A stretch of DNA of 64,000 bases from Pelagomonas calceolata (Eukaryota), in NCBI GenBank assembly GCA_918797485.1, contig CAKKNE010000002.1:5332001-5396000 (forward strand), in the 5' to 3' direction. Position numbers and translations under genes: made by a program. Positions 49,301 to 59,000 of the stretch are shown piece after piece; position 1 is the stretch's first letter, and every line of letters begins with the position of its first letter. A model generated the notes under the pieces. It worked only from the letters and a program-made list of their open reading frames with translations. It was not told the DNA's origin and ran no database searches.

Positions 49301-52300
49301 CGACTTCATGGTCAGCTTCATGGTCGGTTTAAGTATTACGATGATCGATCGCCTGTATCTCGGGCCGGCGGTCGACACGGTGACGACGCTGATCCCGCGC
49401 TGGAAGATGATGTTCCGGCGCAAGTTCCAGGCGCGAAGGAGGATGACGCGGGAAGAGAAAGCTGCCGAGGAGTTGGAGTGGCGGAGGATTAATGAGGAAA
49501 TTGAATTGTCCGCGGAGGGCGTCGAGCCGTTGTTAGGCGCTTATTCGGGCTACAGCGTGGAAGTGACGGCCATGCTCATCTTCCCGTTCCTGAACATGTT
49601 CATGATGTGGTTTCCCATGGTCTGACGCAGCGTCTGAACTTCAAGTTGCGTCGACGGCGCCTTCTTCATGATCACACGAGCGTCGACGCGTCGCGTGACG
49701 GCGTCCGTGCCCCACGCAGGAGACGCAGATCACGATTAAATATGGCATTAGTACGTTCATGTCAGTGACTCGGCGTGATTTCCTTCCATTTCTCAACTTG
49801 AATTTTGGGAAGATGGCGTCTCCACGAGACCACACCGCCGCGACGCCGTCCCGTGTCGTGATGGCGTCGCTCCGCGCAGGTCCAAGTACTTCATCTTCGC
49901 GCTCTACTTGCCGCTCTTCCAACTCATATTAGATGTTTTTATTTTGAACACGCAGGAGCTCGTGTTCGGGTGGAAGGTCTACGACTACGTGTCGTACCAG
50001 CGCTACCGGTTCTCGGTGCGGGACCAGCGGTGCGTATCTCGGCGTCCCGCGGTGCTGCGGTGCCTTCACGCCATCGATGCGCGTCGTCTCCAGGAGAGGA
50101 GGTTTTTGAGGCCGTTCGGACCGACGTCGTGACTCCGGCTCGACGCGGTCCGAATCGGCCCAAATTTGGACCAGAGACCACCCATCGCCTCCTCTGATGG
50201 ACGCGAGTCGCGTCGACGCCGCGAGAGTGCCCAAACACCGCGGCAACACGCGAAACCGCCGCCACACGCAGGTGGATGATGAACAGCAAGGTCCTCGACG
50301 AGTCCATCGCCGAATCGTTGCAGACGTTGGATCTCATGTGCTTTAGTGAGCAGTACTACTTCCTGGTCGCGCTCATATCTTTCGGGATGCTGCTCGTGAC
50401 GATCTGTGCGGAAATCAAACTTTTACGCCGCGTTCGCGCTGCATCGCCGCGTCGACCTCCACGCCATCTTCATGATACCTGCTCGATGGCGTGGAGGCTC
50501 ACAAATCCACCTGGAGGGCCGGGGAGACCTCGACGCGGTCCGAATTCACTCAAATTCGACAAAGAAACCACGCTCATGGAAGTGAGATGGCCACGAGTCG
50601 CGTCGACGGCGTGAAGGCGCCGCAGCACTCACTGGTTGATTTCCACACAGGTCACGATGGGCGTGACGACGTTCATCAACACGAATTATAACTTCTTTGG
50701 CGATCCGGTCATGCCCGTGATTGTTGTGATCATGTTGCTCTATCTGGATTTCCTGCAGCACATGCTGTTTCGCGCGGCGGATATAAGGGTGAGGAAATTA
50801 AAATGGCGAGGCTTGTGGATGACGAAGCAAATCGAGGGCACGGTCGACGACGACGTGGCCGTGAAGTTGGCTATTGGCGAGGGGCGCCAGGCGGATCTGG
50901 AGCAGGAGCGGCTGGAGTTGCAGGCTTTGAATAGTGAGAGGTTTAGACATCGATTTTTGGAGCGAAATAGGCCGTGGATCCTCCAGCATCTCGTGGAGCT
51001 GTTGACACCTAGAAGCTTGGAGCAGCCGGGGCACGATGGCAGACCTGTGGTGGAGTACGTGCGGGACGTCTACGCCGAGCTCATGGTTTGTTTTGCGGCG
51101 TCTTTGTCTTCTTCGTTGTTACCGCGCCATCGCCACTACCGCCTACACGCCATCGACGTGACGCCTGCTCGATAGCGTGGCGGTGCCGGTTCCTCACTAT
51201 GGGACCCGACTCACCCCACAACGCCTTCGCCGCGACCAATCACCCAGGATCACGCCGGGCGCCTACACGCCGTCGCCGCGACGACGACACCTCACCGCGC
51301 GACGCAACGCAGGCCATGGGCGAAGGTACAAGAAAGCCGGGCGACCGCGACGATATCAGTTCGGACGACGAAGACGAAATGGAGCGCGCGCGGGCGTCGT
51401 GGCCGCGGGCGCCCTTGAAAGGTGCTGCTTTGGTCATTGCGAGATTATGGTTGGATAAAGCGCGGAAGCGTAGAGCGTTTACAAGACATATTCAGGGCCT
51501 CATGCTGGCGCAGAAGAAGGACGCCTGCGACCTGACGGGGCGGACGGAGGCCATGGGCGCGAAGCTCGTCTGTACATTAGCTACGAACGGCAAGCCGGTT
51601 CGTGTTCCGGCGTCTTTTTCGTTTGCGTCGTCGTTTCCTCGCCGGAGCCCCTGGTGCTGCCGCGTATACGAAGCAGACGCCATCGCCGCGGCGCCGTACG
51701 CCATCGCCGCGACCCTTCACCCCATCGCAGGACAAGAACGCGATCGACGACCTCATCGCGGGTTTTGAAGAGGCGTACGGCCCGAACGAGCGGGACGTGA
51801 ACCTCTGGAAGGCCTATTTCCGGGGCCACGCCGAGTTCATCACGGTGGACCAGGCCATTTTAGATGCGAATGAGCGGGAAAGGGTAGCGAGGCAGTCGCA
51901 GCGGCCGCCCGGCGCGGGTCGGGCTACTCGAGCGGATGACGTGTCTTCGGACAGCGAGGAGGAGGACTGCGCCTTCGATCCTCTCGTGGTGGTGCGGACG
52001 TCGTCGGAGGGTCGGATGCTGTCGAAGTGGCTCGACGCCGCGCGGAAGCGGCTGGGCGGCACCTTTCCGCGCGACGCGGCTCGGGCCGAGATGGAGGCCT
52101 ACGCCGAGAAGATGCGCCGGCGGAAGCTCAAGGGCGGCAAGCAGGCCGTGGCCGGCGTCGTCGAGGACGAAACCACCGAAGCGGCGCGGCTCGAGAAGCG
52201 CGTCGTGCGGCTGTCGCAGGTTCGTCTGGCGGCGTCTTTTTTTCCACCCCGTCGCCGCGGCGCCGTACGCCGTCGCCGCGGCCCCTCACCTTGTTACAAT

Positions 52301-53245
52301 CCCGCAGGCGTCGACCGCGTTGGCGAGGCGGTGGCTCCGCGCGGCGCAGGATTCGATCCAAGCGAGGTTCAGAGAACGGGGCAAGAAGCTCCGGGACGAC
52401 TGCGAGGAATGTTTAGGAGAGATGCCCGAGGAGGACGAGTGGTTCTACGGCGCCGATCTGCGGTTTGAAGGAAGGCAGGTGCTGACGCGCGGCGATGCGT
52501 TACGGGCCGATCAACTCACCCTAGAAGCCGAGGCCGCCGTGCGCGTGCGTCGCATCGAGGCGGACTTCCAGGTCTTCGAGCAGGAGAAGCAGGTTCGTTT
52601 GGCTGCGTCTTGTTTGTTCTGGTGCCTTCGCCTTCGCCGCGGCACGCCATCGCCGCGGCGCGTTACGCCGTCGCCGCACCGCCCTACGCCGTCGCCGCGG
52701 CCCTTCACCTTCTTACGATCCCGCAGGCGACGATCGACGAGGAGCGGGCCGTCTTCGAGGCCAAACTGCAGAAGCTCGCCGACGAGGCGAATCGGAAGCT
52801 GGAGTTGCGGACGCGGGAGCTCGAACGCACGAAAGATTTGAGGAGGGAGGAATGCGACGCCGCCGAGAAGAAGGAGCGCGACGAGGAAGGCGCCGCGTCA
52901 AGTGCTACCTTAGCGAAGCACCGCGACATCCTCGACTCTATTGATCAGGAGATCGAGGGCGCGCGGGAGGCCGTCGAGAAACAACGAAAAGCGTACGAGG
53001 GCGAGCAGCGCGGCTTCTTCGACCGGCACGAGAGCCTCCAGATCCAGGTGATTGCCGATCGGCGGATCTCGGCGATCACGAACATCCGCCAGATCAGGAA
53101 AGAAACCCAAGCCAAAATTCGGGGCGACGAGAACAAGTGGCAGAACGACGCCGCGCGCTGGTTGAGTACTGGTAGGAGGAAGGTCGAGCTCAAGAAGCGC
53201 GAGGACGCGGACATGGAAGCTGCTAAAAGGCGGCGGGGGCAGTAG
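10302..53245 (+). CDS. Giant (~13,200 aa) cell-surface multi-pass membrane protein: signal peptide, dozens of IPT/TIG repeats, EVQ-type repeats, GCC2/GCC3-like Cys repeats, TM bundle, coiled coil
   Basis: 32.3-kb first exon 10302-42644. Introns: 42645-42826, 44249-44409, 44561-44677, 45147-45356, 45489-45779, 46649-46896, 47192-47387, 47704-47867, 48316-48463, 48587-48862, 49023-49075, 49620-49719, 49761-49879, 50030-50271, 50396-50650, 51086-51312, 51598-51730, 52220-52307, 52593-52726. They total 3344 nt, leaving 39600 nt = 13200 codons. Donors at 44249, 46649 and 47192 are less certain. Confidence 0.8.
42645..42826 (+). mobile_element. Introner intron, CCT2-type family
   Basis: CAGTGAGGAAATCAAAGTTCAAGCGCCCTTCAATT...GACTCACTGGTTGATTTCCACACAG is colinear with the CCT2 intron. 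The TSD copies do not match. Confidence 0.85.
44249..44409 (+). mobile_element. Introner intron, palindromic family (3' half)
   Basis: The 3' ~95 nt are nearly identical to the end of intron 50030-50271 (AGAGACCACCCATCGCC...AAACCGCCGCCACACGCAG). Donor position uncertain. Confidence 0.7.
44561..44677 (+). mobile_element. GC-AG introner intron (117 nt, in frame, stop-free)
   Basis: TSD GCATGGGC/GCATGTGG (6/8). Ends CAGCGTCGA...TCCACGCAG. Shares GTATCCCTCGGAGGTCGTGTCCGAG with the CCT2 intron. Confidence 0.8.
45147..45356 (+). mobile_element. Introner intron, palindromic family (210 nt, in frame, stop-free)
   Basis: GTACG/GTACG flanks. Shares CGGTCCGAA..GGCTCAAATTTGGACCAG and GATGGACACGAGTCGCGTCGA with sister introns. 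Confidence 0.75.
45489..45779 (+). mobile_element. Introner intron, palindromic family
   Basis: Phase-2 GT-AG restores the frame (LPP|SKGELL). Shares GCCTTCACGCCATCGACGCG, GTGGGTGGTTTCTTT and GCGATGCTCCGCGCAG blocks. Confidence 0.75.
46649..46896 (+). mobile_element. Introner intron, palindromic family (probable GC donor)
   Basis: Internal inverted repeat TTCGGACCGCGTCG / CGACGCGGTCCGAA. The frame requires a phase-1 donor, and GC at 46649 fits. Confidence 0.7.
47192..47387 (+). mobile_element. Introner intron, sister of 48316-48463
   Basis: Ends GAGCGAGCTCTGACGGCATCGATCCGCGCAG versus GAGCGAGCTCCGACGGCGTCGATCCGCACAG. Confidence 0.7.
47704..47867 (+). mobile_element. Repeat-family intron, sister of 49761-49879
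   Basis: Both start GTCAGTGACTCRGCGTGATTTCCTTCMATTTCTCAACTTGAAKTTTGGGAAGATGGCGTC. Confidence 0.75.
48316..48463 (+). mobile_element. Introner intron, sister of 47192-47387
   Basis: Phase-1 GT-AG. Shares the GTGGGTGGT..TTT..GATTTTGAGC.GTTTCGGAC block and the 3' end. Confidence 0.75.
48587..48862 (+). mobile_element. GC-AG introner intron, CCT2-type, with ~100-nt internal insertion
   Basis: TSD GCACGTGC/GCATGTAC (6/8). TTCAAGCGCCCTTCAATTCGGGGTCTCTCG as in the CCT2 intron. Ends GGTTGATTTCCACGCAG. Confidence 0.85.
49023..49075 (+). mobile_element. 53-nt GC-AG intron, deletion-type relative of 49620-49719
   Basis: Shares GACGCAGCGTCTGAACTTCAA, TTCRTGATCRCACGA and CCCCRCGCAG. Removal gives HWLW|TGVMFNAYYNFLLEFSY. 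Confidence 0.7.
49620..49719 (+). mobile_element. Introner-related intron
   Basis: Phase-0 GT-AG with an in-frame stop inside. Followed by a 41-nt exon (ETQITIKYGISTFM). Confidence 0.75.
49761..49879 (+). mobile_element. Repeat-family intron, sister of 47704-47867
   Basis: Phase-2 GT-AG; ~58-nt 5' block nearly identical to 47704. Confidence 0.75.
50030..50271 (+). mobile_element. Introner intron, palindromic family
   Basis: Fold-back pairs CCGCGGTG/CACCGCGG and TTCGGACCG/CGGTCCGAA. Removal gives YRFSVRDQR|WMMNSKVLDESI. Confidence 0.8.
50396..50658 (+). mobile_element. Introner forming intron 50396-50650
   Basis: TSD GTGACGAT/GTCACGAT (7/8). TIR CTGTGCGGAAATCAA/TTGATTTCCACACAG (14/15). Confidence 0.9.
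51086..52726 (+). repeat. Four consecutive related phase-0 introns (51086-51312, 51598-51730, 52220-52307, 52593-52726)
   Basis: All start GTTYGT..GCGTCTT and carry ACGCCRTCGCCGCG units. No clear TIR or TSD. Confidence 0.75.
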
Positions 53246-53426
53246 GCTTGCTGCTATTCATTGTGTAAGAATTATAGATATTATTAACATGGCTGTTCGT
53301 TCGTCCGTAGTCCGTTGTGGGGGCGCCGGCGCGCACGCGCGTCGGGGACGGCTGTTCGCTCACGCACCGACTCTCGGCTCGCACGAATCGTCCGTGAACC
53401 CGTGCGGTCGCGGTCTTCAGCGTGGT

Positions 53427-53656
53427 ACGGCGTCGTAGACCGCGACGAGCAGCAGCTGCGCGTCGCCGCCGGCCTTCTCCCGCAGGCCCGTCGCCGCGAT
53501 GGCTGTTTCCAACGCTTTGCGGTGCCGCCGCACCTCGGAGACGAGCGCCACGGTCCTCGGCGGGTTCTGTGTCTTGTAGGCTGCCGTCTTCAGCGTGGTG
53601 CGGCCGCCGTCGACCGCTTTGAGGCATTTTGCCGCGTCGCGGTAGTGGGACGCCAT
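53427..53656 (-). pseudogene. NSUN5: Truncated 5' copy of NSUN5
   Basis: MASHYRDAAKCLK...VAVYDAV matches the protein start at 57692 (silent changes only), then homology stops and the ORF ends at 53417. Confidence 0.8.
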
Positions 53657-53777
53657 CTGTTCGCTCCGAGGGCCCTAATTGGCGCCGGCCATCGCCGCCC
53701 TGCCGGCGCCTCGGGTTTTCCTGTAACCCGGTACTAGAGGCAAAAAACAAACAAAAAATCAAGAGTCGCATTGATCG

Positions 53778-53961
53778 ACCCACTGGTAGGTAAAGCTACC
53801 GGGTACAGGTCGTAGGATCGAAACCTACAGTTGCAATACAAGCTTCTTGATGCATTCGTAGATGTCTGCTACGAAGTCACAAACTTGGCGCAGCGGTAAA
53901 AGCTCTAACAGGATTTTCTGTCAGCGCGGTGTTCCATTCACGTGGAAACGTTCGGCCCATA
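53778..53961 (+). tRNA. Circularly permuted initiator tRNA-Met(CAT) with four BHB-like introns
   Basis: Pieces in genomic order: nt38-43 53778-53783; nt44-73 53807-53836; nt1-3 53851-53853; nt4-21 53882-53898; nt22-29 53924-53931; nt30-37 53954-53961. Assembled: TGCAACT TG GCGC AGCGGTA GCGC G GTGGG CCCATAA CCCAC AGGTC GTAGG ATCGAAA CCTAC AGTTGCA A. All four stems are fully Watson-Crick; initiator marks G29-31:C39-41, A54 and A60 are present. Confidence 0.88.
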
Positions 53962-53978
53962 CTCGCTAGCGGCTCTTC

Positions 53979-53985
53979 TTTTTTT
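53979..53985 (+). terminator. Pol III oligo(T) terminator of the permuted pre-tRNA
   Basis: T7 run just after the trailer GCGGCTCTT (53969-53977), which pairs with the leader AAGAGTCGC (53761-53769). Confidence 0.75.
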
Positions 53986-54155
53986 GCTCCCTGGGTGCTC
54001 GGACCCTCGGACCGCGCTTTGACGCTGGCTTGGGGCGAGGTAGGACCCCTATGGTGGCTGTACGACCCCACTCCGTCCACGCGCCCCAATTTCATCAAAG
54101 GCAGGATTCCGCGGACGAAACGCACACGGTCAACCGAGGGTCCTATCTTGGGACG
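53986..54155. ncRNA. Candidate structured RNA of unknown family (also at ~57205-57375)
   Basis: Nested helices: GGACCCTCGG 54001-54010 / CCGAGGGTCC 54134-54143; CTTTGA/TCAAAG; TTGGGGCG 54030-54037 / CGCCCCAA 54082-54089. Appears identical in both arms. Confidence 0.35.
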
Positions 54156-54358
54156 CAGAGTGACGTGGGAGGCGTCTAGATCACCCGCCAACGCGAGGAC
54201 AAGCCATGGGGCTAGGCGCACAAGACGAAGGGCCCACCGGCGCGATCGTAAGAAGCAACAACAGTTATATATCTAAGAGCCCGCAGATTCAGCAGCGTCG
54301 AACCGGACCCACAGCCGCCGAGGCACGGCGACCACCGGCGCCGACGCGGGCGACAGAG

Positions 54359-54736
54359 TCACGACGAGCCCGAGGGGGGCGCCGCCGGCTTCCGCGCGCG
54401 CGAGAATTTTTTGCACTGCCGCAGCGCGCGGCCCAGCGGGCTCGGGGAGCCCTGCTCGGCGCCCGCGCCGTCGTCGCCCCCGGCCGCCGGCGTCGTCGTC
54501 GCGCCCGCGCTGTTCGCGCGGGTGGCGTCGACGCCGCCGGATGTTGAAGACGACGACGACGAGCCGCTCCGCTCACAGGCCTCGTCGGCGACGCCCGTCG
54601 GCGACGACGATGACGTCTCGGCAGCCTTCGGTTGTCGCACGACGCGCGATTGCTGCTCTCCGCTTGGCTGCTCCGCCTTGTCCGTCACACGAGGCGCATT
54701 GCTGGCAGCTTTTTTCGCCTTGCGGAAGAATGACAT
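54359..54736 (-). CDS. Hypothetical low-complexity protein
   Basis: ATG-start 125-aa ORF, Ser/Ala-rich. Its 3' end runs into the duplication arm. Confidence 0.3.
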   Translation of the reverse strand: MSFFRKAKKAASNAPRVTDKAEQPSGEQQSRVVRQPKAAETSSSSPTGVADEACERSGSSSSSSTSGGVDATRANSAGATTTPAAGGDDGAGAEQGSPSPLGRALRQCKKFSRARKPAAPPSGSS

Positions 54737-55120
54737 ATGTCAGTAGCGTGTCCTGCACCGCAGTGCTCGCGACTCAACTGCTGCTGCTCGTGAGCGCAGT
54801 GAGAGCACAATTCGAGTCGTGAGGCTGGCAAACTTGAACGGGCATGGCCCGCCCCAGGATGGATCCTCTCGCCGGGCGATCTTTCGCGGGAGATCATCGA
54901 AGCGTCGAAAAGACACAGACACGTCTTCTTGGGGCGCGGGTTTTGGTCAGGTCATTGTGGACTCATTTGCCGACAGCGCCTTCAGGCGACCAGCGAACAA
55001 CTCACGCGAGTTGCATACGGTAGCCCAAGGTCGCGGCGCGTGATCTGGACCGCGGCGCGCACTCGCGCATCTCGATTCTCGACCTAGAAATTTGACATAG
55101 AAGGCTTTCTGGCTCCCATC

Positions 55121-55615
55121 ATGCAGGACGGCGACGCGACGGACACGGCACGCTCGCAGAAGCGCGAGACGCCCGAGGACACGGACACGGCCCAGGAACC
55201 GGAGCGTCGTGTCCGGCCGCGCGAGACGCCCGTGGGCGCGGCCTCGGCCGCGGCGCCGGAGACCGAAGAAGAGGTCGAGAACGCGCCCGCCAAGGCCGAG
55301 TCCAACAACGGCGACGCGGTCGAAGACAAGGACGGCGAGGACGGCGACACGGTCGCCACAGCGCCTCCAGCGCAGCCGCGCACCAGGGTGTGGTACTCGC
55401 GTGTTCGGGGACTCACCGACGCTGAGCGGGCCGTCCAAAGCAGGGTGAACAATCCTTTCGATGGACCGATGCGCGGACAACTGCCCCCCGTCACTCCCTT
55501 CGACGACGCGCCCCGGATCGGGCGCCCGGCCCGCTGGGTCCGGGAGGAAGTCGAAGTGGAGACCGGACGCGTGGTGAGCCAGGAGCCGATCGAGGGCGAG
55601 CCCCCCCGACATTGA
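55121..55615 (+). CDS. Hypothetical acidic protein
   Basis: ATG-start 164-aa ORF with GC-ending codons; no recognised domain. Confidence 0.45.
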   Translation: MQDGDATDTARSQKRETPEDTDTAQEPERRVRPRETPVGAASAAAPETEEEVENAPAKAESNNGDAVEDKDGEDGDTVATAPPAQPRTRVWYSRVRGLTDAERAVQSRVNNPFDGPMRGQLPPVTPFDDAPRIGRPARWVREEVEVETGRVVSQEPIEGEPPRH

Positions 55616-55866
55616 ATCCCGTGCCCTTCCCTCCGTACTAAAGAAGCACTATATAGCCCCTAGCGTAGTGAGACACTAGAATCCGCAGTGCTGAGAGCAC
55701 CGTGCCCAAACGCAATATACGTGTGCCACTGGCAAGGCAGGCTTCGTGCCGCTCTCACAGCCGTCTGCGCCGATAGAGCGAAACGCTGGCGCGCGGGATG
55801 CCGGAGGTCTAGCTGAGACCCGAGGCTGATCAGCTGACGCTGGGCGGCGCTGTCCACGACAGAATC

Positions 55867-56559
55867 ATGGAGTCGGAGGATGACGGCGAGCGGCCGGGCC
55901 CAATACACGACGCTGCCATCGAATGCGACGTTGAAGCGTTACGAAGCGAGCTCGCGCGGGGCGTGTCGGCGAATCAACGCATCCCAGGCAATGACAACAC
56001 GCCCCTCCATTGGCTCTGCTATAGCGACAAGGCCGACTGGGCGATAGGCGGAGCAGAGTGCTTCCACGTGCTCCTGGCCGCAGGAGCCGATATCAACGCA
56101 GCTTGCGACATCTTTGGTGACACGCCGCTATCCGTGGCAGCTTGTAGAGTGCACCCCAGCTTACAACTGCTCCTCGAGGCAGGGGCTGACGTGAACTTGA
56201 GGCCCCCCGATCAACTTGAGGGCGGCCCCTGGAATTTAACGGCCCTGGAGAAGGTAATTATGTGCCGCGGGTACGGAGCTCGCCGTCGCCGCGCCTACCC
56301 AATTCTTCTCCGTGCGGGCTCTGAACTCCCCACGGCTCAATTCATGCAAGGCGAGCGCGACCGCCTCGGCAATGGGAATGGACAGGGCGTCTTCAGTGAG
56401 CCTTACATTGAGAAGGTGATAACCGCCGGCAGCCTCGCGAACTACGAACGCCTTCACCTTACGAAGCTCACTAGCATGTTCCAGCCGAAGTTCCCGTTTC
56501 TGCCGAAGGAAGTCATCCAGCGCGTCGTCGAATTCTGGTCTCACGCGGGTGATTACTAG
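55867..56559 (+). CDS. Ankyrin-repeat protein
   Basis: PIHDAA, NTPLHWLC, LLAAGADIN, GDTPLSVA, LLLEAGADVN. The C-terminal LPKEVIQRVVEFWSHAGDY tail is typical, from recall, of an expanded pelagophyte family. Confidence 0.85.
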   Translation: MESEDDGERPGPIHDAAIECDVEALRSELARGVSANQRIPGNDNTPLHWLCYSDKADWAIGGAECFHVLLAAGADINAACDIFGDTPLSVAACRVHPSLQLLLEAGADVNLRPPDQLEGGPWNLTALEKVIMCRGYGARRRRAYPILLRAGSELPTAQFMQGERDRLGNGNGQGVFSEPYIEKVITAGSLANYERLHLTKLTSMFQPKFPFLPKEVIQRVVEFWSHAGDY

Positions 56560-56604
56560 TCACGGTACCTAGGGGCGCGCGCGTAACGTGTTGTTCTTGT
56601 ATTC

Positions 56605-56940
56605 GATATCTGAGTGCTGAGGACTAACTAGCTCGCGAATCGCGCGCGTCGCCGGAGTGCTGAGGACTAGCTGCCAACCGAAAACGCCAAAACTGTCACA
56701 TGCGCGGAAGCCGCCTCGGGCTCGTCGTGACTTTGTATTGCGCTATCTGAGTGCTGAGGACTAGCTAGCCCGCGGGACGCGTGTCACCAGAGTGCTGAGG
56801 ACTAGCTAGCAACCGAACAGAAGATCGAACAAAAACCGTAGAAAACCCGCACGATAGAATTCATTGCTCTATCTGAGTGCTGAGGACTAGCTAGCGAGCT
56901 GGACACGGCGTCGCTGGAGTGCTGAGGACTTGCTAGCCAA
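56605..56940. repeat. Six copies of GAGTGCTGAGGACT arranged as three pairs
   Basis: Starts at 56612, 56655, 56749, 56790, 56875 and 56917; spacings 43, 94, 41, 85, 42. Confidence 0.85.
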
Positions 56941-56948
56941 CCCAAAAC

Positions 56949-57921
56949 GCAAAAAATTCTCGCGCGCGCGGAAGCCGGCGGCGCCCCCCTCGGGCTCGTC
57001 GTGACTTTGTCGCCCGCTCCGGCGCTGGTGGTTGCCGCGCCTCGGCGGCCTTGGGTTCGGCTCGACGCTGCTGATTCTGCGGCTCTTAGATATATAACTG
57101 TTGTTGCTTTTACGATCGCGCCGGTGGGCCCTTCGTCTTGTGCGCCTAGCCCCATGGCTTGTCCTCGCGTTGGCGGGTGATCTAGACGCCTCCCACGTCA
57201 CTCTGCGTCCCAAGATAGGACCCTCGGTTGACCGTGTGCGTTTCGTCCGCGGAATCCTGCCTTTGATGAAATTGGGGCGCGTGGACGGAGTGGGGTCGTA
57301 CAGCCACCATAGGGGTCCTACCTCGCCCCAAGCCAGCGTCAAAGCGCGGTCCGAGGGTCCGAGCACCCAGGGAGCAAAAAAAGAAGAGCCGCTAGCGAGT
57401 ATGGGCCGAACGTTTCCACGTGAATGGAACACCGCGCTGACAGAAAATCCTGTTAGAGCTTTTACCGCTGCGCCAAGTTTGTGACTTCGTAGCGCACACA
57501 TTCCATAAAAGCTTGTATTGCAACTGTAGGTTTCGATCCTACGACCTGTACCCGGTAGCTTTACCTACCAGTGGGTCGATCAATGCGACTCTTGATTTTT
57601 TGTTTGTTTTTTGCCTCTAGTACCGGGTTACAGGAAAACCCGAGGCGCGGCGGCGATGGCCGGCGCCAATTAGGGCCCTCGGAGCGAACAGATGGCGTCC
57701 CACTACCGCGACGCGGCAAAATGCCTCAAAGCGGTCGACGGCGGCCGCACCACGCTGAAGACGGCAGCCTACAAGACGCAGAACCCGCCGAGGACCGTGG
57801 CGCTCGTCTCCGAGGTGCGCCGGCATCGCAAGGCGTTGGAAACGGCCATCGCGGCGACGGGCCTGCGGGAGAAGGCCGGCGGCGACGCGCAGCTGCTGCT
57901 CGTGGCGGTCTACGACGCCGT
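56949..57921. repeat. Right arm of the inverted duplication
   Basis: Reverse complement of 53427-54414 with scattered substitutions/indels and one replaced patch at ~57494-57510. Confidence 0.92.
57400..57576 (-). tRNA. Second copy of the permuted tRNA-iMet; spacer and 3/4-intron region altered, possibly non-functional
   Basis: Pieces nt38-43 57576-57571, nt44-73 57547-57518, nt4-21 57479-57463, nt22-29 57437-57430 and nt30-37 57407-57400 are identical to copy 1. TTCTTGATGCATTCGTAGATGTCT is replaced by TTTTATGGAATGTGTGC. Confidence 0.65.
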
Positions 57922-59000
57922 CGCCGGCCGCGGCGCGCCGAAGCGCTGCGGCGGCAAGCTGCTGCGCGCGATCCGGGAGGTGTTGTGCGGCGCGCAAATC
58001 AACCAATCGTCGCGGCGATGGCGTGCTGGTGGCGGATTCGAGAGGTGGTGAGAGTCAGCGCGGTGATACGAGACGCGCGCAGGCGCTGCCCGCGCTCAAG
58101 AGCACCTTCGAGGCCGCGCGCACGGAGTCGCCTTCAAGAACCGAAAACAAACCGCGCTACCTGCGCTGCAACCTGTTGACGACGACACGAAAAGAAGTGA
58201 GGGAGAAGCTCGCGGCCGAGGGCGTCGCCGCGGAGGACGACGTGCATGTCGACGACCTCCTCGTCACGACCGCCAAGGTCCACGGCGGCCACGCCCTGGT
58301 CAAGGCCGGCGAGGTCATCCTGCAGGACAAGTCGAGCTGCTTCCCCGCGCACGCGCTCTTAGACGGCCTGCCGCCGGACTGGCGTGGCGATGTTGTGGAT
58401 GCGTGCGCCGCGCCGGGCAACAAGTCGACGCACGCCGCGGCATTACTACGGGGCCGCGGCAAGGTGTTGGCCGTCGACCGCGACGCGGCGCGGCTGAAGA
58501 TCCTCGAGGAGCGCGTGCGCGAGGCGAAGGCCGATAATGTGGTCCAAGCGGTCCGGGGCGACTTTTTAAAGTTGCGCCACGGCGGCGCGCGGGCGATCCT
58601 CGTGGACCCGTCGTGCTCGGGCGGGTTCGAGGGCGAGGCGGCGTCGGACGAGCGCGTGGCGCGGCTCGCCGAGTTCCAGAGCAAAGCATTACGAGCTGCG
58701 CTGATGCGGTTCCCGCGCGCCGAGCGCGTGTCCTACTCGACGTGCTCGCTGCGCGCCGAAGAGGACGAGGCCGTCGTGGCCGGCGCGCTCGCGGACGCGG
58801 ACATAAGGAAGGGCGGCTGGCGCCTCGCGCCGGCGCTGCCGGCGTGGCCGCGGCGCGGCCGGCCCCACGCGGGCCTGGATCGGGCGCAGAGCGACTGCCT
58901 CGCGCGCGCCGATCCATCAAAGGACGCGACGGGCGCGTTCTTCGTCGCGCTCTTCGAGCGGTCCGCCGGTGCGGCGCGGAAGCGGCGGCGGCGGGGGTAA
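57692..59000 (+). CDS. NSUN5: NSUN5/Rcm1-like LSU rRNA cytosine-C5 methyltransferase; exons 57692-57979 and 58083-59000
   Basis: PRYLRCNLL, ILQDKSSCFPA, DACAAPGNKSTH, ILVDPSCSG, YSTCS..EEDE.VV, FFVALFER. Phase-0 GT-AG intron 57980-58082. Confidence 0.88.
57980..58082 (+). mobile_element. Degenerate introner-like intron in NSUN5
   Basis: Eight nt after the GT donor lies CGGCGCGCAAATCAACCA, resembling the TIR CTGTGYGGAAATCAACCA. Ends GCGCGCAG|GC. Confidence 0.6.

Follow-up and report, generated by a model that had tools for sequence, protein, structure and literature searches.

A permuted tRNA-Met(CAU) gene with four introns in a pelagophyte and its likely route to a mature tRNA

INTRODUCTION

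Table 1 of PMC3978253 lists circularly permuted tRNA genes from algae, both red and green, from the nucleomorph of a chlorarachniophyte and from Thermofilum; none of these genes has more than one intron, and the spacer between the two halves measures 1-74 bp. [quoted passage not shown] Four genes of C. merolae are described as both permuted and intronic; Sen2, Sen34 and Sen54 are present and Sen15 is not clear, introns at 37/38 are removed last, and two modes of substrate recognition have been proposed (PMC3728597). Auxenochlorella provides an additional green alga in the comparison set. Elsewhere, the intron position 3/4 has been described as an extreme case of Thermoproteales (PMC4090602). 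The Xenopus tRNA-splicing endonuclease (TSEN) cuts a motif termed bulge-helix-bulge (BHB) placed in an mRNA (PMC10485636), so BHB cutting alone is not special.

Here we describe a tRNA gene that combines permutation with four introns, found at 53778-53961 (+) of the window, the whole 64-kb stretch of DNA that was analysed. An initial annotation had read BHB-like introns at this place and had proposed a broad-specificity splicing endonuclease. The best explanation of the locus is that a pelagophyte carries here a tRNA-Met(CAU) gene that is circularly permuted and has four introns; it is likely functional and likely matured by the host's own TSEN and ligase via a circular intermediate.

MATERIALS AND METHODS

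Folding was evaluated by ensemble sampling, with 3000 structures for each of the 16 splicing states of the precursor, under an energy model of the bare RNA without modifications or proteins. RNA reads came from three raw poly(A) runs of one sample, about 6% of each, together with one contig set. For the stretch that is present in two copies, contigs were compared from four of 21 runs that were DNA or possibly DNA. Readings were taken from the joints and the 30 letters at each, among the differences and loose ends listed; the loose-end letters were checked to be those adjoining the joint. One of these runs, X2, was flagged as a possible source of the window's DNA and is therefore not independent of it.

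RESULTS

Gene architecture

The interrupted gene escapes standard tools, as ARAGORN and Rfam gave no tRNA match on the raw window. Read by hand, the DNA holds six exons in the order 38-43, 44-73, a 14-nt spacer, 1-3, 4-21, 22-29 and 30-37, with introns at 43/44, 3/4, 21/22 and 29/30. Since the 3′ half (38-73) precedes the 5′ half (1-37) and a run of seven T follows the gene, this is a type II (37/38) circularly permuted tRNA gene. Disruption of further tRNA genes, which the initial annotation had thought possible, was not seen in the 64-kb window, where the only tRNA-like T-arms found are those of the gene and its second copy.

Upstream lies an A-rich stretch ending in CAA (53738-53762, +), which is the likely Pol III start region; no TATA box was seen upstream of the gene. 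Positions 53761-53769 of the leader (53761-53777, +) pair over 9 bp with 53969-53977 of the trailer. The first exon, tRNA positions 38-43 (53778-53783, +), is followed by the 23-nt intron 43/44 (53784-53806, +) and by the exon of positions 44-73 (53807-53836, +), which encodes the variable loop, the T-arm with A54 and A60, the acceptor 3′ strand and A73. The 14-nt intervening sequence (53837-53850, +), within the listed range of spacers, leads from position 73 to position 1, and its last 3 nt take part in the 3/4 helix. Positions 1-3, beginning with U1, make up an exon of just 3 nt (53851-53853, +); the 28-nt intron 3/4 that comes next (53854-53881, +) interrupts the acceptor stem. Then come the exon of positions 4-21 (53882-53898, +), the 25-nt intron 21/22 (53899-53923, +), the exon of positions 22-29 (53924-53931, +), the 22-nt intron 29/30 (53932-53953, +) and the exon of positions 30-37 with the anticodon CAT (53954-53961, +). 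The trailer (53962-53985, +) ends in the seven-T run (53979-53985), a likely Pol III terminator.

Rejoined in tRNA order, the exons give 72 nt that ARAGORN calls tRNA-Met(cat), with all four stems free of mismatches. The prediction that cuts by the BHB rule restore a mature tRNA is thus borne out by a clean cloverleaf.

Identity of the product

Initiator tRNAs are marked, among other features, by A60, C33 and three G-C pairs that close the anticodon stem. The rejoined tRNA has the anticodon CAU, the T-loop AUCGAAA (with A54 and A60), G29G30G31/C39C40C41, C33 and a short D-loop. Its best matches among uninterrupted tRNAs of the fetched loci are initiator-like genes, identical at 56 of 72 positions. 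The combination A54U55C56 is a eukaryotic initiator mark as well (PMC3978253). Pair 1:72 goes against the initiator rule: it is U1:A72, where A1-U72 is described as a discriminator of initiators that is highly conserved (PMC5393177). The fetched loci hold 37 distinct initiator-like genes, of which 33 have A:U at this pair, three C:G, one G:C and none U1:A72; an alternative register that would give A1:U72 was sought by eye and not found. The missing discriminator is what speaks for an elongator or a dual-use tRNA-Met, a reading that we consider improbable given A54, A60, the G-C pairs of the anticodon stem, C33, the short D-loop and the similarity to initiator-like genes. The product is most likely an initiator despite U1:A72.

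Intron motifs

Refolding of each intron with its flanks, and comparison with shuffled introns, confirmed the four motifs as the initial annotation had drawn them. At 43/44 the central helix ACCC/GGGT has all four pairs, with a 5-bp inner stem and no outer helix. Intron 3/4 likewise has four of four pairs (TGAT/GTCA), a 7-bp inner stem and an outer helix of 1 bp. The four pairs at 21/22 (GCGG/CTGT) include two G-U, the inner stem consists of 3 bp, a mismatch and 3 bp, and the outer helix is absent. At 29/30, three of four central pairs form and the inner stem is out of strict register (1 bp when read strictly); the 2-bp outer helix there had been overlooked. Under the relaxed BHB/BHL definition, which asks for a central helix of some 4 bp and for bulges of 3 nt that are cut behind their second base, the introns 43/44, 3/4, 21/22 and 29/30 thus show 4, 4, 4 and 3 pairs. 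With outer helices of 0, 1, 0 and 2 bp, the first three introns are HBh′-like (weakly so at 21/22) and the last is hBH-like in a relaxed form; none of the four has both flanking helices of the strict hBHBh′ motif.

The cut sites agree with these helices. For all four introns, the number of central-helix pairs is maximal at offset 0 within -3 to +3, that is, with cuts after the second bulge base. Repeated letters leave the cut register ambiguous at three junctions, and at these the best helix is the one in BHB register. Among 20000 shuffles of each intron, the observed central helix and strict inner stem were matched by one for 43/44, none for 3/4, 16 for 21/22 and 2114 for 29/30; among 1500 shuffles scored by constrained folding energy, the matches numbered 0, 0, 83 and 5. 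The motifs at 43/44 and 3/4 are therefore far beyond chance, and those at 21/22 (by energy) and 29/30 (by strict geometry) are borderline.

The 37/38 junction is of another kind. Its central helix has two of four pairs (the 'no H' class), as weak as had been suspected, and the 37/38 'intron' is in fact the pair of transcript ends of the permuted gene. These ends carry the 9-bp leader-trailer clamp, a helix that 43 of 5000 leader shuffles pair equally well and that, whichever of the 16 splicing states is sampled, is present in at least 99% of the structures. The precursor as a whole folds with z = -2.64.

Predicted folding and order of splicing

In the unspliced RNA, the central helix forms in a fraction of 0.44 of sampled structures at 3/4, 0.24 at 43/44, 0.03 at 21/22 and 0.04 at 29/30. 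Removal of intron 3/4 brings the acceptor stem to 0.97-0.98 and the 21/22 helix up to 0.31-0.54, and the 29/30 helix reaches 0.16-0.18 once both 3/4 and 21/22 are gone. The expected competition between motif helices and cloverleaf was borne out: because the 3/4 helix borrows three spacer bases and the anticodon stem requires that introns 29/30 and 43/44 be gone, the order of splicing is constrained. The anticodon stem is found in 0.00 of the structures sampled for the fully spliced linear precursor, where enforcing it costs 5.9 kcal/mol over the best fold, and competing hairpins are predicted at the 37/38 ends; the last step would thus need refolding or an enzyme that binds the tRNA body.

From these features we infer the following steps of transcription and processing. 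Pol III would make a single RNA of about 225 nt, with its ends clamped by the 9-bp helix. The introns would be cut according to local shape, with 3/4 and 43/44 predicted to be available first, and 21/22 and 29/30 cut mostly after the loss of 3/4 and the formation of the acceptor stem. Cutting and joining of the 37/38 ends, which lack a helix, would come last, probably aided by the folded tRNA body as proposed for C. merolae. Removal of the 14-nt spacer by RNase P and RNase Z, and addition of CCA, would follow. Five cut-and-join steps in total would be needed for the mature tRNA.

The end of this scheme could also run in another order, in which the spacer is excised first and the 37/38 joint is made between two paired halves, with no circular intermediate. 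The acceptor stem and T-arm, which are what RNase P and RNase Z mainly read (PMC3978253), form as soon as 3/4 is gone. Against this, the spacer must stay at least until 3/4 is spliced, since the three spacer bases in the 3/4 helix imply that this intron would leave before end-processing, and we regard such an order as very unlikely. The preferred scheme remains the one via a circular intermediate.

Second copy and neighbouring genes

A second copy of the gene lies at 57400-57576 (-), within a 1-kb inverted duplication whose left arm spans 53427-54414 (strand not assigned) and whose right arm spans 56949-57921. An NSUN5-like rRNA methyltransferase gene (57692-59000, +) stands head to head with copy 2, and the left arm holds only a truncated 5′ piece of it, which suggests that the left arm is likely the derived copy. 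In the NSUN5-like gene itself, a frame change near 57980-58060 puts the N-terminal and catalytic domains in different frames, through an intron or a sequence error.

Copy 2 equals copy 1 except for a replaced patch that covers the spacer end, the exon 1-3 and the 5′ half of intron 3/4, and destroys the 3/4 motif. Alternative 3/4 introns of 14 nt or 40 nt in copy 2 were rejected, as each gives only two of four helix pairs. In the cultured-sample runs X2 and X5 the patch was not seen. A single X2 contig covers 53445-54202 at a depth of 946 versus 539, about double, with no difference in the gene, so that both copies have the intact form there; in X5 the intact form of the patch region is joined to copy 2's inner flank. 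The patch is either an assembly error or a strain lesion.

The host is identified by its other genes. The LUC7 protein of the window has its nearest named relatives in Chrysoreinhardia (49%, E 2e-67) and Pelagophyceae sp. CCMP2097 (42%), and the Ran gene 2 kb from copy 2 shares its 90% cluster with Aureococcus anophagefferens and with two further records from pelagophytes; these relatives indicate that the host is a pelagophyte. The best named relatives of NSUN5 were green algae and oomycetes (about 43%), with no pelagophyte named, and an Atlas look-up gave PhyH clusters only.

Several other features of the window were recorded. Between the duplication arms, 56600-56970 holds about seven copies of a repeat of about 20-45 nt, whose family recurs elsewhere in runs X2, X5, X8 and X13. 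In one X5 contig, the outer left flank continues by way of the repeat into the inner right flank (53354-57493), as if the 2.5-kb inter-arm segment were flipped, which could be an assembly effect. GC-rich direct repeats at 51200-52750 are in register, with spacings of 21 nt and 377-569 nt. A single open frame at 10302-42815 (+) encodes 10,837 aa. IPT/TIG domains make up most of this protein (35 stretches matched, in three pieces), and an ephrin-receptor-like motif occurs late in it; directly after the frame come frames of 500 and 417 aa without a Pfam match.

Wild relatives

Contigs of the seawater runs X8 and X13 (depth 46.9 and 49.5) go from the upstream flank (53718) to a 34-letter piece that starts at 53805 and fits 53805-53838. 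At the equivalent of this place in copy 2 (57516), X8 has a loose end that reads two letters, nine T and then a close match to the flank 3′ of the window's gene. Together, the joint and the T-run loose end would read as a normal-order gene without the 43/44 intron at the same locus in these seawater relatives. We hold this reading as probable; it takes both to belong to one contig, and the 5′ half lies outside the letters read. In rarer seawater contigs, at depths of 12.6 and 8.9, the 3′ end of the 43/44 intron is present. Among the seawater variants listed, a single one falls inside the gene, at 53866 (run X8) in an intron loop; an X8 contig over 53867-54083 has nine differences and one gap.

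Searches in wider collections were made with patterns. Scanning metagenomes for a T-arm with a D-arm after it proved too unspecific: no permuted relative was recognized among the loci listed (at least 120, from 28 of 64 parts of the collection), where chance matches and tandem ordinary tRNAs were seen. Exact exon patterns had no match in viral contigs or in prokaryote genomes. A pattern for the D-arm matched at 34 viral loci, and no T-loop or anticodon motif lay close to any of them; a locus search anchored on NSUN5 gave none in viruses and one archaeal locus. At several loci (L001, L042, L052, L062, L097, L108, L115 and others), initiator-like tRNA-Met genes stand in tandem arrays in which the anticodon stems vary and the spacers repeat; their contigs are low-GC and possibly belong to giant viruses.

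Poly(A) RNA gave 53 reads on the 1-kb stretch. Depth over the gene is at most 1, unspliced, in the orientation of the neighbouring gene and without joints, in libraries of a kind that cannot show tRNA. This single depth over the gene was rejected as a sign of expression.

It is against this record that a dead or dying relic, never fully matured and backed by a working tRNA-iMet encoded elsewhere, has to be weighed. U1:A72, the disfavoured anticodon stem and the damage to one copy of the window would all fit decay, as would the lack of spliced RNA among poly(A) reads, for what such a library can tell of a tRNA. A relic would hardly be expected to keep stems without mismatch and four motifs in register; moreover, neither X2 nor X5 shows the damage to copy 2, and the match of seawater contigs extends across the 3′ strand of the acceptor, A72 included, as judged from the ends of the piece. 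We give decay a low probability and take the gene as likely functional.

Recognition by the splicing endonuclease

Use of the gene would require a nuclease of the host that cuts at non-canonical sites. The initial annotation had gone further, to an archaeal-style TSEN of broad specificity that acts independently of the mature domain. Broad specificity is a fair inference from the four ectopic sites, one of them in the acceptor stem, which lie beyond measurement by a ruler. An enzyme that relies on local BHB shape alone at all five sites, with the tRNA body unused, would also agree with the proposal of an archaeal-like (alpha-beta)2 enzyme in many eukaryotes other than animals and fungi; outside these two groups and the amoebozoans, generally only a catalytic and a structural TSEN subunit, one of each, are recognisable (PMC10485636). 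Independence from the mature domain is too strong a claim, since the 37/38 junction lacks a proper central helix and since in C. merolae 37/38 is always processed last, with recognition of the mature domain proposed there (PMC3728597). The competing hairpins at the 37/38 ends argue in the same direction. Recognition by shape alone thus seems unlikely to us; the two of four helix pairs at 37/38 suggest that a C. merolae-like, two-mode recognition fits better. A search with an archaeal endonuclease (from locus L122) against longer proteins returned 51 matches among 105 candidates, of which the named ones were all archaeal and none a named eukaryote.

DISCUSSION

If expressed, the gene raises the known limit for a eukaryotic tRNA gene, with four introns plus permutation and a 3-nt exon, and puts an acceptor-stem intron, so far known from archaea, in a eukaryote. 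Expression would also extend BHB-type processing to stramenopile host nuclei and would imply that tRNA annotation of pelagophytes is incomplete. Substrate recognition by TSENs outside animals and fungi could be studied in this alga as a cultivable system. Should the normal-order relative be real, the model in which permuted tRNA genes originate by duplication and loss would become testable on close relatives at one locus.

No permuted or multi-intron gene of this sort is reported for stramenopiles in the consulted part of a 2026 review or in PlantRNA 2.0, which includes two heterokonts. The word 'tRNA' is absent from the main text of two pelagophyte genome papers; supplements and tRNA databases could list pelagophyte genes. 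In the portions of the literature compared (including PMC13578239, PMC9481584, PMC13728533, PMC9023262 and PMC12636532), the maximum is one intron in permuted genes and three in eukaryotic genes, with no stramenopile among the hosts.

On a wider reading, which we hold tentatively and at slightly less than even chance, shape-reading tRNA splicing would have in pelagophytes its third lineage of eukaryotes, independent of the others, and no nuclear tRNA gene described would be more fragmented than theirs, which encodes an initiator with U1:A72 and needs five cut-and-join steps. Wild close relatives would keep the normal order beside the same neighbour, without the 43/44 intron; permutation and intron gain or loss would then be recent, with both states comparable in living strains.

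Compared with archaea, the locus shares the non-canonical BHB introns, including those at 3/4 and 29/30, of Thermoproteales and Asgard archaea, where genes have up to three introns in the Thermoproteales type and up to five intervening sequences in Asgard (PMC4090602; PMC8450103; bioRxiv 10.64898/2026.10.13.758758, as far as these sources describe them). Those multi-intron genes differ in having archaeal hosts, whereas the alga's gene has eukaryotic initiator features and eukaryotic neighbours, and the permuted genes of Thermofilum pendens are described with one intron each, versus four here. Eukaryotic introns outside 37/38, with splicing shown by RT-PCR, are known from Chondrus crispus (PlantRNA 2.0) and the Guillardia theta nucleomorph (as cited in PMC4090602); the genes described there are of red-algal lineage, are not permuted and have at most two and three introns, respectively. 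Permuted genes of green algae offer the same isotype cut at the same 37/38 junction, with spacers of 12 and 47 bp against 14 here, but are without introns.

C. merolae shares further features: there too, by the accounts in PMC3728597 and Table 1 of PMC3978253, the 3′ half comes first, the spacer is short, a T-run follows and the 37/38 site is weak, and BHB-like motifs of HBh′, hBH and no-H types stand at ectopic positions (PMC3728597; PMC3978253). In contrast to the four introns plus permutation found here, the genes of C. merolae are given with at most three introns, and the permuted ones with at most one; its listed intron regions do not include the acceptor stem, which is interrupted at 3/4 in this stramenopile. 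Its permuted iMet gene is cut at 50/51 and has no intron in the account of PMC3978253, whereas the pelagophyte gene is cut at 37/38 and has four. We take the locus as a real but extreme gene with a known type of mechanism, in a new lineage.
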